Source: a phage
DNA length: 43,897 nucleotides
Strand: one strand, 5' to 3'
Assembly (NCBI GenBank): GCA_026329315.1
Contig: GCA_026329315.1_4342.1
Shown: positions 10,522 through 39,422 of the stretch, piece after piece
Position numbering within the stretch: the stretch's first letter is position 1
Layout: every line of letters begins with the position of its first letter
Program-made: the position numbers and the translations under genes
Notes under the pieces: model-generated
What the model was told of the DNA's origin: nothing
Database searches by the model: none
Seen by the model: the letters and a program-made list of their open reading frames with translations, nothing else

Positions 10522-10888
10522 CGTTTCTACCCTCGAAAATAGCGTCTAAGCTCATGATGATGTCGGATTCGAACATCCCTATATTCTGGCCTGAAACGGT
10601 GCTGTACGCCACTAAATCTGACCATCGTAATTGCTCGCGCGGGTACATCTTGATGCCGTCGTCGTCCACTCGGCGGGTGAATTTAATTTCCCTGTACTTC
10701 TCAAATGTGGTTAGTAGCTCAGGGGGGCATTCCGGCCCAGCGGCCTGCGTTGCATCCGGCGCGTCTTGCATAACCCCCATAGCAATTAGCGCGGCTTTAT
10801 GCCCATCGGCGATACTGTCAAATTCCCGCCGTTTGTGGCGGGTTATGAAGTTCCAACGGGCGAACTGGAGCAACGCGTCTACTTTTCC
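10514..10888 (-). CDS. T segment of tail assembly chaperone G-T (expressed by -1 frameshift from G)
   Basis: Open -1 frame overlapping 3' end of G with no ATG of its own; candidate slip site GGAAAAG at 10882-10888. Confidence 0.45.
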   Translation of the reverse strand, partial: GKVDALLQFARWNFITRHKRREFDSIADGHKAALIAMGVMQDAPDATQAAGPECPPELLTTFEKYREIKFTRRVDDDGIKMYPREQLRWSDLVAYSTVSGQNIGMFESDIIMSLDAIFEGRNDG

Positions 10889-11295
10889 TGTAGCTGGTGC
10901 AGTTGTTCGTTATGAAACACAACAACAAGTTCCGCGAGTCGTTTATATTGCGTCAGGAGTGTGTTCAGATTCTCTTTATTGAATTCGTCGTCAAGGCTCC
11001 ACCCGTTAACCAATTCAATCGCTAACTGACGGTTAAGGTCCGTCGCCGCGTCTTCCATCTTCAGGTTGTATTCAGAGAAATCTTTCATCTCTTCGCACTT
11101 ATCACGAAGCGGTTTTAATTTCCCTAATACTGCCCGGTATGCAAGGGTGAACGCGCGCATAGCCTTAACGGCAACGTCCGCCTCAGGAGAAACAACATTA
11201 AGCCATTCCCCGGAATCAGTACCGTCTTTTAGCGGTATCGGCATACGTGCGCCCTTTTCGGCTTCCGCTTCGTAATAAAAATCAGAAAGTTTCAT
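10879..11295 (-). CDS. tail assembly chaperone (G)
   Basis: 138 aa acidic protein directly upstream of tape measure; ATG with AAAGGA RBS. Confidence 0.55.
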   Translation of the reverse strand: MKLSDFYYEAEAEKGARMPIPLKDGTDSGEWLNVVSPEADVAVKAMRAFTLAYRAVLGKLKPLRDKCEEMKDFSEYNLKMEDAATDLNRQLAIELVNGWSLDDEFNKENLNTLLTQYKRLAELVVVFHNEQLHQLQEK

Positions 11296-11402
11296 TCTTT
11301 AATCCTTTGGTTAAGAGGTTACTGGTTAAAGGAAATGCGCCAGACGGGAACCACCCGCTTTTCGTGTGCGACACTAGGCGCAAAATTATTCTAGCACACT
11401 AC

Positions 11403-11431
11403 TTGCACACCCCAATATAATAGCGTACTAT
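11403..11431 (+). promoter_or_regulatory. sigma70-like promoter TTGCAC-N17-TACTAT with embedded palindrome ATAGCGTACTAT
   Basis: Member of conserved class-2 motif TTGCACACCCCAATATAATAG-N-GTACTATTCA; 42 nt upstream of cassette start. Confidence 0.5.
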
Positions 11432-11473
11432 TCACTTACACCAACGATGTTATCTCAAATCAGGAGTTATGTT

Positions 11474-19263: not shown

Positions 19264-19967
19264 TATTTTTTCCTCAGGGCTTTAAGTTGCCGTTCAAATT
19301 CGGCAGGGTTCGATTCGTACAGAGCGATACGCTCCGCTTCACTCATGTCTTTAAACGCTGGTGCGGCCCCGCCGCCTTTGCTACCGGAAGCCCCGCCGCC
19401 GGAAGCTGCATTTGCTTTAATCAAATGTGAAAACGCTTTGTGTTCTCGCAAGTATTTGCGGAACTGTTCCGGGTCAGTCGTGATTACGTTGCCGTCTGCG
19501 CCAACAAACTTAGTAACCACATCATCGCCTTCGAACTCAGTCTTAACGAACGGCGCAAGAATGTCCACTGCTTCTGGGGTAATAAAGTCACCCGCGAAAG
19601 AGCCTAGCACCGCTTTACGTTCGCTGCCGAGGATACGCTCTGCCATTCTGGAGATGCGACCGTCTTTCTCGGCTAACACCGGGTCATACTGGCTACGAAT
19701 CGTCTTTTCGAACTCATCCATCTTACCAGCGGCTTTTAACGCCTCCTGGTGCGCGCGCTGCCGTTCTTCTTCGGCCTCTTTTGCTTTGCGAGCGGCTTCT
19801 TTCTTCTCCGCCAACAATGCTTCCTGATTAGCCTTAAGCCCGGCAACTTCTTTCTCAATCAGCGCCTGAACTTCTTCAGCGGTGAACATTTTCGGCGCGT
19901 CACCGCCACCAGCTTTATCTTCTGCCCCAGCTTCTTCCTGGAACGGATAACGTAAAAAACGATTCAT
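19263..19967 (-). CDS. scaffolding protein
   Basis: E/K/A-rich coiled-coil protein upstream of capsid gene; start chosen at first ATG (track start is TTG at 20021). Confidence 0.5.
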   Translation of the reverse strand: MNRFLRYPFQEEAGAEDKAGGGDAPKMFTAEEVQALIEKEVAGLKANQEALLAEKKEAARKAKEAEEERQRAHQEALKAAGKMDEFEKTIRSQYDPVLAEKDGRISRMAERILGSERKAVLGSFAGDFITPEAVDILAPFVKTEFEGDDVVTKFVGADGNVITTDPEQFRKYLREHKAFSHLIKANAASGGGASGSKGGGAAPAFKDMSEAERIALYESNPAEFERQLKALRKK

Positions 19968-20545: not shown

Positions 20546-20796
20546 GTTTCTCCTTTCTCGATAAGTAAAGCCCCGCCTTAAAGCGGGGCGCTAGTCCTTA
20601 TCATTTAAACATAGAAACGGCGTAATCTCAGTAAACCAGTTACTTTTTACACAAGCAATAGAGTATGGCCCTTCCGAACGCGTCAGCGTAACTACACTCA
20701 GGACTTACGTCCCGCTCCGTTACCTGCCCGCGCCGCGGTCGCTTGTTCATACTTCACAAGCTCAGGTGGAGCTTATCATATTTTTAGTGAAAAGTC

Positions 20797-20812
20797 AACT
20801 ATTCGAATAGTT
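20797..20812. repeat. perfect 16-bp palindrome AACTATTCGAATAGTT
   Basis: Read directly; half-sites match the promoter-embedded palindrome but in everted arrangement. Confidence 0.7.
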
Positions 20813-20864: not shown

Positions 20865-20893
20865 TTGCACACCCCAATATAATAGGGTACTAT
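20865..20893 (+). promoter_or_regulatory. sigma70-like promoter TTGCAC-N17-TACTAT with palindrome ATAGGGTACTAT
   Basis: Near-identical to the 11403 promoter; precedes + strand gene at 20921. Confidence 0.5.
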
Positions 20894-20920
20894 TCAGTTA
20901 ACTTAAGCAGGAGGTGAAAA

Positions 20921-32178: not shown

Positions 32179-32212
32179 AACCCTCACTCCTCTGTCTCGT
32201 TTCGATAGGTGA

Positions 32213-32241
32213 ATAGTATCCTATTATGTTGGGGTGTGCAA
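32213..32241 (-). promoter_or_regulatory. sigma70-like promoter TTGCAC-N17-TACTAT with palindrome ATAGGATACTAT (- strand)
   Basis: Class-2 conserved motif at the head of the leftward arm. Confidence 0.5.
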
Positions 32242-32677
32242 GAGAATAGTTACGTTGCCGTTGTGATTCTTTCGTTTCTTAAAAGAGTACGCAACGCAGT
32301 GGGTGGGCGTTAGCCCACCCCAGCGGAGTGAAGTACTCCCTACCTTACTTACGGCAACTATAGAAACTTTTAATTATCAGTGGCTTAAGAGATATGCTGC
32401 CGATGAGAATAGAGCTTGCCCAGGGCAACCGGGGATACTTACGAAGGAAAGTTAAGATAATTCATATGTTCAGTAATCTGCCGCTTAACACTTCGCTGGC
32501 GCTGGTGCGCCGCTGCGTTTCAAGCGGGTATTACAAGGTGAACAGGAATCAAAGTAACTAAGATATAGAAGCACCTTAAACGAAGATTTTCATAATGTCA
32601 ATATGTGCAATTATGTTTTATTTCCCATTATTCGCAATGTATACTTGGTTTCGTTAACTGATAATGGGGGTTTGAGA

Positions 32678-32848
32678 ATGACGCAGAATGAGGTAGCTGA
32701 GCGTATTGGGGTTACTCGTCGAACGCTGAATAACTGGCTAAAGAGTGGGAAGTTCCCTGATTGCTGTATTCGCATTATGGGCCGTCGTCAGCCAGGTACG
32801 TTTGACCCAGAGAAAGTGGAAGCGTGGATTAAGGAGAACGTGAAATGA
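32678..32848 (+). CDS. AlpA-family HTH DNA-binding protein
   Basis: VAERIGVTRRTLNNWLKSGKFP matches the AlpA/excisionase-like HTH pattern. Confidence 0.55.
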   Translation: MTQNEVAERIGVTRRTLNNWLKSGKFPDCCIRIMGRRQPGTFDPEKVEAWIKENVK

Positions 32849-38798: not shown

Positions 38799-39422
38799 AT
38801 GGGTATTAAACTGAATCTGCGTAAAGTAAACACTGCATGGGTTAACGTATTTGAACGTGAAAAAGACCGTGAAAACGATGATGGCTCAATCACTAAAGGC
38901 CAGTACAGCGCGACTATCATCCTGCCGTCTGACCATGCTCAAATCGATGCACTCTACGACACCGTTTACGCTGTAGTTGAAGAAGCGTTAGGCGCAGCCG
39001 CTGCCGAGAAATGGATGAAGTCCAACTACGGTGAAGGTAAGCACATGGATAAATGCGCGATTAAAGACATTGCCGAGCGCGACAATCCGTTTGAAGACTT
39101 CCCGGAAGGCTTCTACTTCAAAGCGAAGGCACAGAAACAACCGCTGATTGTAACCTCTAAAAAAGGCGAGACTCAGGTAGAGCAGGACTTCAATGTAGAC
39201 GGTGAACAGATTGAAGGTGAACAGGTTTACAGCGGCTGCGTTGCTAACGTAAGCGTAGAAATCTGGTTCAGCCAGAAATATAAAGTCCTCGGCGTTAACC
39301 TGCTGGCGATTAAATACGTAGGCGAAGGTAAAGCGTTCGGTGGTTCTAAAGTAGCTGCAAGCGTCGATGACCTGGAAGACGACGAAGAAGACGCACCGCG
39401 TCGCGAACGTCGCCGCCGTTAA
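38799..39422 (+). CDS. putative ssDNA-binding protein with acidic C-terminal tail
   Basis: Position between nuclease and polymerase; C-terminal DDLEDDEEDA tail. Confidence 0.45.
   Translation: MGIKLNLRKVNTAWVNVFEREKDRENDDGSITKGQYSATIILPSDHAQIDALYDTVYAVVEEALGAAAAEKWMKSNYGEGKHMDKCAIKDIAERDNPFEDFPEGFYFKAKAQKQPLIVTSKKGETQVEQDFNVDGEQIEGEQVYSGCVANVSVEIWFSQKYKVLGVNLLAIKYVGEGKAFGGSKVAASVDDLEDDEEDAPRRERRRR

Follow-up and report, generated by a model that had tools for sequence, protein, structure and literature searches.

In phage lambda, the late leader consists of the P_R' promoter, the 6S RNA and the t_R' terminator, which is read through by the Q antiterminator. Hairpins that are processed by RNase III occur in the early mRNAs of phage T7 and in the lambda N leader. 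The put RNAs of phage HK022 are cis-acting antiterminator RNAs of ~70 nt with two short stem-loops, situated downstream of P_L and P_R, and T4-type phages carry regulatory cassettes known as promoter-early stem-loops (PeSL). At the level of DNA, lambda ori, P4 ori/crr and RSF1010 oriV with its ssi hairpins exemplify iteron-type and transcription-activated replication origins. Here we analyze a non-coding gap at 32179–32677 of a 43,897-nt stretch of phage DNA (contig GCA_026329315.1_4342.1 of GenBank assembly GCA_026329315.1; "the window" denotes this whole stretch), which an original prediction had described as a candidate replication origin and early control region. Judging from its sequence, the window is an Escherichia coli phage, Kagunavirus-like, of the Kagunavirus / Jerseyvirus group in the subfamily Guernseyvirinae. 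The best DNA matches of the locus are Kagunaviruses (91–96% identity), and over the surrounding 1.3 kb Escherichia phages BEU33 and BEU35 are 96% identical to it, K1ind1-type phages ~92%. We consider it somewhat better than an even bet, with a probability of about 0.55, that the gap is an early divergent control region with an embedded leftward non-coding transcription unit, the core of which is a covarying 110-nt hairpin. This hairpin, downstream of a predicted leftward promoter of its own, is the main content of the gap and had been missed by the original prediction.

The long hairpin and the predicted leftward RNA

We collected 44 loci from IMG/VR via the helix-turn-helix (HTH) protein encoded to the right of the gap, added three GenBank loci, and built an alignment of the 520 nt that precede the HTH start. 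The middle of the gap is occupied by one of three mutually unrelated cassettes, designated v1, v2 and v3, and each cassette type has its own leftward promoter and hairpins. The window, Kagunaviruses and most Jerseyviruses carry v1 (27 distinct sequences); v2 occurs in 15 loci, and v3 in 2. The gap and the v1 features in the window are as follows.

32179–32677: non-coding gap of ~499 bp, from the ATG (32178) of a leftward 62/65-aa gene to the ATG (32678) of the rightward HTH_17 gene
32281–32566, minus strand: predicted non-coding transcript of ~285 nt, composed from P_as, the hairpins and a U-tract
32573–32601, minus strand: P_as, predicted internal leftward promoter (-35 TTGACA at 32601–32596, 17-nt spacer, -10 TAAGGT at 32578–32573)
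32450–32559, minus strand: long imperfect hairpin of 110 nt, with helices P1–P5 and a conserved 4-nt bulge, CCUU; core of the predicted RNA
32376–32449, minus strand: conserved block between the hairpins, with an invariant ATCAG..CTT (32376–32387), AATAGA (32408–32413) and a short hairpin, TTGCCCAGGGCAA (32416–32428)
32285–32338, minus strand: compound GC-rich hairpin ("hairpin 1"), inner stem 32301–32308/32313–32320, outer stem 32285–32290/32333–32338, followed by UUUU (32284–32281)

The long hairpin is formed by all 27 distinct v1 sequences, in which the apical 40–60 nt belong to five unrelated sequence types. Folding was compared with shuffled controls. In the window the z-score of the hairpin is -6.32 for the minus strand, compared with -2.29 for the plus strand. 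Among six representatives the values ranged from -4.1 to -6.9 for the minus strand versus -2.3 to -5.5 for the plus strand, and the minus strand was the more negative in 6/6. An unanchored alignment with MAFFT and RNAalifold recovered the invariant outer stems only, as the apical part cannot be aligned by sequence, and we therefore built a structural alignment by hand, using as anchors the conserved helices and, within each sequence, the outermost pair of the apical part. On this anchored alignment, 91.9% of cells are paired, compared with 78.3 ± 0.7% after shuffling (0/500) and 30–49% when the partner is slid. Double-sided changes occur at 15 of the 36 pairs and account for 151 cells versus 55.6 in shuffles, and the covariation score is 0.398 versus 0.149. 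Helix P2 provides an example, reading UGAUUC/GAAUUA in Kagunaviruses and UAAGUUU/AAACUUA in Jerseyviruses. G-U wobbles were counted in 42 cells on the minus strand versus 2 on the plus strand, and some minus-strand pairs of the conserved block at 32376–32449 are likewise G-U, which would be A-C on the plus strand.

The start of the P_as transcript is predicted at ~32566, 7 nt ahead of the long hairpin. TTGACA-N17-TAAGGT or TAAGTT is present in 25 of the 27 v1 sequences, TAAGTT being the Jersey-type form, and the equivalent place in the unrelated cassettes is occupied by TTGACT-N17-TAAGCT in v2 and by TTGAAA-N18-TATAAT in v3. In the GenBank record of phage Jersey, P_as is annotated as a predicted promoter. 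For the predicted RNA over its whole length (32567–32285), the folding z-score is -4.57 for the minus strand (0/200), compared with -2.15 for the plus strand.

At the other end of this predicted RNA, the inner stem of hairpin 1 is a perfect 8-bp helix, GGGTGGGC (32301–32308) paired with GCCCACCC (32313–32320) across a GTTA loop. The original prediction had recognized this hairpin, with its start off by one and its 3' arm given as GCCCACCCA, one C short; the arm reads GCCCACCCCA. A smaller hairpin that it also listed, GGAGT-GAAGT-ACTCC at 32325–32339, is present; an alternative compound fold that pairs GAGTAC (32285–32290) with GTACTC (32333–32338) is more stable, at -30.9 kcal/mol (z = -4.89, 0/200 shuffles), and competes with it. 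Four unrelated sequences (window type, K type, S type and Jersey type) occupy the hairpin 1 position among relatives, and all of them fold, with z-scores of -3.2 to -4.9. The minus-strand tail that follows is UUUUAAG in the window and UUUAGUU in the K type, and no type has a U-tract after hairpin 1 on the plus strand. The compound hairpin (54 nt) resembles a terminator, and the predicted RNA may end there; transcription probably continues past it into P_L and the left arm, at the least in phages of the Jersey type. The ~285-nt transcript would, we infer, be a small RNA that stops at hairpin 1 or else a leader reading into the P_L operon. Beside hairpin 1, a (GAGTGA)n microsatellite of 3 to 6 copies is found in six loci (L023, L026, L027, L032, L035 and L044), ~60–90 nt to the left of cassette v2.

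A covariance search for structured RNA, suggested as a check at the outset, had a divided outcome: no Rfam family was recovered, whereas the stems of the gap do covary among relatives. At the gathering threshold Rfam matched nothing in the gap, and at a relaxed cutoff (E ≤ 10) the best scores were 15–16 bits versus the 36–50 required, which is the level of chance. A tRNA/tmRNA scan found none. When the window was searched for targets of the CU-rich stretch (complement CTAAGGAAGGAAAG), 5 sites were present versus 2.8 expected, none of them convincing, and the motif itself is altered in the window. A literature search returned no mapped origin and no non-coding RNA for Guernseyvirinae. On sequence grounds, the v1 element is most likely an undescribed phage early leader or small RNA.

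Predicted promoters at the two edges and a shared palindrome

The remaining features of the control region lie at the left and right edges of the gap.

32213–32241, minus strand: P_L, predicted leftward promoter (-35 TTGCAC at 32241–32236, 17-nt spacer, -10 TACTAT at 32218–32213)
32243–32277: conserved block directly upstream of the P_L -35, GAGAATAGTTACGTTGCCGTTGTGATTCTT, with a further AATAG half-site; mostly 70–99% columns
32617–32645, plus strand: P_R, predicted rightward early promoter of the HTH / 77-aa / helicase-primase operon (-35 TTTATT at 32617–32622, 17-nt spacer, -10 TATACT at 32640–32645)
32666–32680, plus strand: ribosome-binding site (RBS) GGGGG (32666–32670) and ATG (32678–32680) of the HTH_17 gene
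32678–32848, plus strand: HTH_17 / excisionase-type protein of 56 aa, first gene to the right of the gap

P_L and P_R both have sigma-70-type hexamers, at a spacing of 17 nt (16–18 nt being usual), that are conserved and correctly placed before genes. P_L is conserved in the 44 relatives at 70–99% of identity per column, and the palindrome AATAG-N4-CTATT (32212–32225) overlaps its spacer and -10. The P_L module, 32–37 nt in length, recurs at 11402–11438 and at 20865–20900 with 89–94% identity, for three loci in all. The palindrome by itself occurs 11 times in the window versus 0.98 expected, at sites that include 11419, 20881, 30817, 32212, 35858, 35903, 38712 and 42478. In their context, the sites belong to predicted promoters with one of two layouts, either TTGCAC-N17-TACTAT or TTGACA-N17-TATAGT, before early and middle genes. 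Within the gap, AATAG half-sites are found at 32212, 32221, 32245 and 32408. In the GenBank record of phage Jersey, no site is marked at P_L, where the palindrome is degenerate. The same palindrome occurs 7 times in phage fBC-Eco01, where it was interpreted as a promoter for a phage polymerase (PMC9825357). No phage-own polymerase was seen in the phages considered here, and we therefore read the motif as a host promoter with a built-in operator; AATAG-N4-CTATT is probably the operator of a phage regulator, for which it provides a candidate site.

On the right, the P_R -10 hexamer TATACT (32640–32645) is invariant in all 44 sequences. The promoter has the form TTGATT-17-TATACT in 24 relatives and TTGCTT-17-TATACT in at least 6, and it is annotated as a promoter in the GenBank record of PVP-SE2. 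The TTTATT of the window differs from the TTGATT of 24 other v1 relatives by one substitution, G to T, at the part of the hexamer that is most conserved. P_R and P_as are arranged back-to-back, with their -35 hexamers 15 bp apart, and P_R would leave the HTH gene a 5' untranslated region of ~26 nt. An AT-rich stretch ahead of the HTH gene had been pointed out before; GC content is indeed 28–32% over 32550–32669, and the stretch coincides with the back-to-back hexamers and spacers of P_as and P_R. An inverted repeat, CCCATTAT (32624–32631) and ATAATGGG (32661–32668), flanks the -10 and start site of P_R on both sides and extends over the Shine-Dalgarno region. Its CCCAT/ATGGG is kept in Jersey-type v1 sequences, and the repeat could be an operator for autoregulation. 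One promoter proposed by a consensus scan, TTGCGA-N16-CATAAT (minus strand, 32637–32610), was not adopted, as it is not conserved in Jersey-type relatives.

The non-coding character of the region was correctly seen in the original prediction, which gave it 436 bp (32242–32677); this is too short, and the true span of ~499 bp begins at 32179. The related record ULINTec2 annotates identical limits, and the gap is conserved in 447 phage records. To the right, the HTH gene is followed in the rightward direction by genes for a 77-aa protein without assigned function and a 755-aa AAA_25 helicase-primase, and to the left are small leftward genes without assigned function. In phage K1B4, the sole Kagunavirus for which a transcriptome is available, the HTH gene downstream of the gap is early (PMC12645636). 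With this and the conserved sigma-70-type promoters at both edges, the idea of an early control region is supported. The description of the HTH gene as AlpA-like is not supported: the 56-aa protein matches Pfam HTH_17 (2.1e-7) and PHROG 66 (excisionase / transcriptional regulator), has no Phage_AlpA match at E ≤ 0.01 and no solved relative with a significant E-value, and thus appears to be a generic excisionase-type HTH protein. Its matches are to the HTH_17 / excisionase-type domain only, and it could not be recognized as an AlpA- or Q-type regulator.

Cassette exchange and sister elements

The composition of the gap is mosaic. The left 90 nt (32188–32277) show 70–99% column identity whatever lies to the right. 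Within it, the block at 32243–32277 is kept in window-, K- and S-type relatives regardless of the cassette and is 96–99% identical in phages that share nothing farther right, while the Jersey type differs; it is possibly an UP element or a regulator site. The borders of the mosaic fall at the repeated P_L module and at the ATCAG..CTT block. At the left junction, ATCAGnnnnCTT (32376–32387) is invariant or nearly so in v1 and v2, its counterpart in v3 is ACAGTAGATATTT, and it resembles the IHF site WATCAANNNNTTR with one mismatch. In L013 and L004, an extra insert of ~135 nt with a small open reading frame (ORF) lies between P_R and the HTH gene. Neither v1 nor v2 had a match in 5,426 E. coli genomes, and host mimicry or a prophage origin of these cassettes was rejected on this basis.

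The window itself also carries v2, at ~20570–20810, between the start of an Rz-like spanin gene (20545, minus strand) and a type-A promoter. This copy is 79–88% identical to v2 at the HTH locus of other phages, and where v2 occupies the HTH locus, the phage has two copies of it. Its layout comprises a leftward promoter sequence, TTGACT-N17-TAAGCT, ~200 nt with small covarying hairpins, and a terminator-like site. The latter, GCCCCGC..GGCGGGGC UUUACUU at 20589–20570, is the best terminator-like site of a 20-kb scan and lies 24 nt before the spanin gene. No promoter other than that of v2 was found before the spanin gene, so that leftward transcription through v2 is the simplest reading, which, by analogy, favors reading v1 on the minus strand as well. 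At the spanin locus, v2 is 95–99% identical in 173 records, and it is 98–100% identical to that of Salmonella phage S102, compared with 67–89% for the flanking genes. A relaxed Rfam search of the v2 copy gave matches at the level of chance only. Directly upstream of the v2 promoter -35, the palindrome CTATTCGAATAG (20799–20810) has the same half-sites in the opposite arrangement; it is confined to spanin-locus copies, and its placement is typical of an activator site.

A further structured RNA in the window matches a described family.

11320–11384, minus strand: int-alpA RNA (RF02996), 36.6 bits versus a gathering score of 35.8

It has an extended -10 promoter of its own, TGCTAGAAT (11320–11396 region), back-to-back with a type-A promoter, and is located directly upstream of a tail assembly chaperone gene (10879–11295), not beside an integrase or alpA gene.

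Interpretation and relation to known systems

In the reading that we favor, host RNA polymerase would start rightward at P_R to express the HTH protein, the 77-aa protein and the helicase-primase, and leftward at P_L to express the small left-arm genes. P_L would be one of ~10 promoters in the genome with AATAG-N4-CTATT over the spacer and -10, and a phage regulator probably binds this palindrome and switches these promoters together. P_as would fire leftward, back-to-back with P_R, and its transcript would begin ~7 nt before the 110-nt hairpin, cross the conserved stretch and reach the compound GC-rich hairpin and its UUUU. The most likely product would be a ~285-nt early RNA, mostly ending at hairpin 1, and read-through would provide the P_L operon with a long structured leader. 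The long duplex would be the functional core, likeliest as an RNase III-type processing or stability element, or as a recognition element for a regulator of leftward transcription.

What the sequences show is their own conservation, the covarying stems, and the retention of promoter hexamers and spacing; promoter firing, the ends of the RNA and all functional roles are inferred from these. Several observations weigh against this reading. The anchored alignment used minus-strand folds, which biases pair and G-U counts to that structure and strand, and the 27 v1 sequences represent only about six lineages. In the Jersey type, the plus strand folds about equally well via other pairings, and hairpin 1 lacks a U-tract; elsewhere this tract is short. 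A hairpin conserved at the level of DNA would give equal covariation. The consensus scan lists none of P_as, P_L and P_R, as one hexamer of each matches the consensus at 3/6 positions only (for P_as, the -10), and the case for the three promoters therefore rests on conservation. Finally, the sole Kagunavirus transcriptome is reported per gene.

An alternative is that the gap is a replication origin, in which the AT-rich spacer between P_as and P_R unwinds, opened by divergent transcription, and the inverted repeat extrudes or acts as a single-strand initiation signal for the helicase-primase 460 bp downstream. The setting is plausible for a transcription-activated origin: the gap adjoins replication genes, including that for the AAA_25 helicase-primase, the stretch at 32550–32669 with its 28–32% GC lies between two divergent promoters, and the strand-asymmetric pairing of the conserved long inverted repeat would also fit single-stranded DNA. 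The cumulative GC skew, a check proposed with the original prediction, does reach its minimum at ~32.2 kb. This is the point at which gene orientation switches, and the skew is also positive over the rightward genes at 11.5–14 kb and 1–2 kb; it thus follows gene orientation and gives no independent signal of an origin. The earlier remark that clear iterons are absent was confirmed, with no tandem repeats in the gap at a score of ≥30 and direct repeats in two copies only (8–20 nt, 70–100% identity). DnaA-box-like sequences (TTWTNCACA, ≤1 mismatch) number 54 in the window versus 68.7 expected, with two one-mismatch sites in the gap, and no initiator-binding motif was identified. Moreover, phages with near-identical helicase-primase neighborhoods carry three unrelated cassettes in this slot, and such free exchange argues against a sequence-specific origin recognized by one initiator; the v2 copy, for its part, sits before lysis genes. 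We regard an origin at this site as quite unlikely, and this part of the original prediction found no specific support. A P4-type iteron was also considered for TGTTCACC, which occurs 4 times in the window versus 1.2 expected (32537–32544, 39201–39208, 39216–39223 and 19881–19888), the first copy falling in the conserved bulged part of the long hairpin. This idea was dropped, as the identity of the motif with the P4 iteron was not confirmed in the literature searched, and the helicase is AAA_25/RepA-like, not P4-alpha-like.

The gap could also act purely as DNA, with no dedicated RNA, through sites for a phage regulator and for host architectural proteins (the IHF-like ATCAGnnnnCTTR at 32376–32387) and with promoter modules that serve as recombination linkers to shuffle cassettes, as in T4-type phages. 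The positions of the mosaic boundaries, the recurrence of AATAG half-sites in the gap and the presence of a 37-nt promoter module at three loci are in accord with this. Protein sites do not, however, explain compensatory changes over ~36 bp or the replacement of apical stems with retention of pairing, and a conserved leftward promoter right before the hairpin in all three cassette types would be left unaccounted for; we consider a DNA-only role unlikely. Transcription on the opposite strand was considered in the form of a long 5' leader of the HTH operon, starting at a weak promoter at ~32229–32256 that diverges from P_L, in which the repeat CCCATTAT/ATAATGGG would sequester the RBS. Such a leader would match the layout at 11320–11440, where the Rfam match is transcribed away from a type-A promoter, and the inverted repeat around P_R and the Shine-Dalgarno region as well as the folding of the plus strand are compatible with it. 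The available plus-strand promoters are poor (TTGGGG-N16-TACGTT matches at 6/12 positions, and AATAGA lacks the T at the last -10 position), no hairpin is followed by a U-tract on that strand, z-scores and G-U counts favor the minus strand, and with P_R 26 nt from the gene a second, distant promoter is unnecessary, all of which makes this very unlikely. Last, a small protein might be encoded in the gap, e.g. by a 27–31-aa plus-strand frame ending in ...YKVNRNQSN (32469–32561), which is open in the window, L005, L013 and L014, and whose C-terminus can be read in similar form in the Jersey type. In L008, L006 and L002 the frame is interrupted or cut short, in the Jersey type it lacks a start codon and has an in-frame stop, no RBS is found at a workable spacing, the subtypes differ in length by amounts that are not always divisible by three, and a frame inside a symmetric hairpin tends to stay open by chance. 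The original statement that the gap holds no plausible ORF needs qualification, since five ORFs of 27–55 aa exist; none of these is common to the cassette types or to the v1 subtypes among the relatives compared, and the 55-aa ORF at 32394–32561 is cut short or frame-broken in L008, L002 and Jersey-type relatives. A small ORF conserved in relatives, which the original prediction had named as evidence that would overturn it, was looked for and none was found. We rejected the small-ORF hypothesis, which is scarcely credible on these data.

A broader and speculative proposal, which we hold to be improbable, extends the favored reading to other loci. Guernseyvirinae would possess interchangeable, unrelated cassettes made up of a promoter, a structured RNA and a terminator hairpin (v1, v2, v3 and the int-alpA RNA) that head leftward units and act as cis-acting, put-like or Q/AlpA-like antitermination switches to time the left-arm, lysis and tail genes. 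If so, v1 would be one such switch and the near-invariant v2 another. An AlpA-type antiterminator survives only within this proposal, as the HTH protein is of the generic excisionase type and not of the AlpA family.

Kagunaviruses and Jerseyviruses are commonly isolated for use in phage therapy and food safety, and their gene regulation is known from automated promoter predictions only. The analysis provides a testable map of early control with three predicted promoters and one shared operator motif, a conserved and covarying RNA-like element described by no database, and a slot that is exchanged as a cassette and has a sister element that hardly varies between genera. A genuine RNA here would be an early product made by a strictly lytic phage and would offer a handle on the timing of the left arm; should there be none, the main sequence arguments for an origin at this site are still removed. 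Experiments would be best spent on the cassette-like exchange and on the near-invariant sister element at 20.6 kb.

In function, the nearest analogues are the lambda P_R'-6S-t_R' leader, the RNase III hairpins of T7 and lambda early leaders, the HK022 put RNAs and the int-alpA RNA; these are analogies and imply no membership. Among the known systems, iteron-type and transcription-activated origins share with the gap an AT-rich stretch beside replication genes, flanking transcription (here predicted) and a large inverted repeat; they differ in that the gap has no iterons or DnaA-box enrichment and its content is interchangeable among close relatives. Like the RNase III processing hairpins of T7 and lambda, the long hairpin is an imperfect duplex (~36–40 bp, with internal loops and a conserved bulge) near the 5' end of a predicted early transcript of host polymerase, but there is no sequence similarity and it is longer than the classical T7 sites. 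The put RNAs of HK022, too, are structured RNAs just downstream of early promoters and upstream of terminators, and the likeness includes the occurrence of up to two cassettes per genome in the present phages; they differ in that v1 would have a single 110-nt hairpin in a ~285-nt predicted RNA, and no similarity to put was found. PeSL cassettes resemble the arrangement seen here in having repeated promoter and hairpin modules at the boundaries of exchangeable segments, while the modules in our case are larger, the exchanged unit is itself non-coding, and recombination is deduced from mosaicism. The int-alpA RNA of the same genome provides a close parallel, in which a type-A promoter stands back-to-back with the RNA's own promoter and a compound hairpin and U-rich tail are followed by a leftward gene, although the gap matches no Rfam family at E ≤ 10 and has a single long hairpin in place of an outer stem enclosing two hairpins. 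With respect to the lambda late leader, no Q homologue or Q-binding element was found here, v1 precedes another promoter and small early-type genes, and the U-tract is short or absent in some relatives. The likeness to P_R'-6S-t_R' lies in a constitutive-looking sigma-70 promoter, a predicted non-coding RNA of ~200–285 nt and a hairpin with a U-tract, all placed before genes, and it extends to the v2 copy of the window, which stands directly before the Rz-like spanin gene as P_R'-t_R' stands before the lambda lysis genes.

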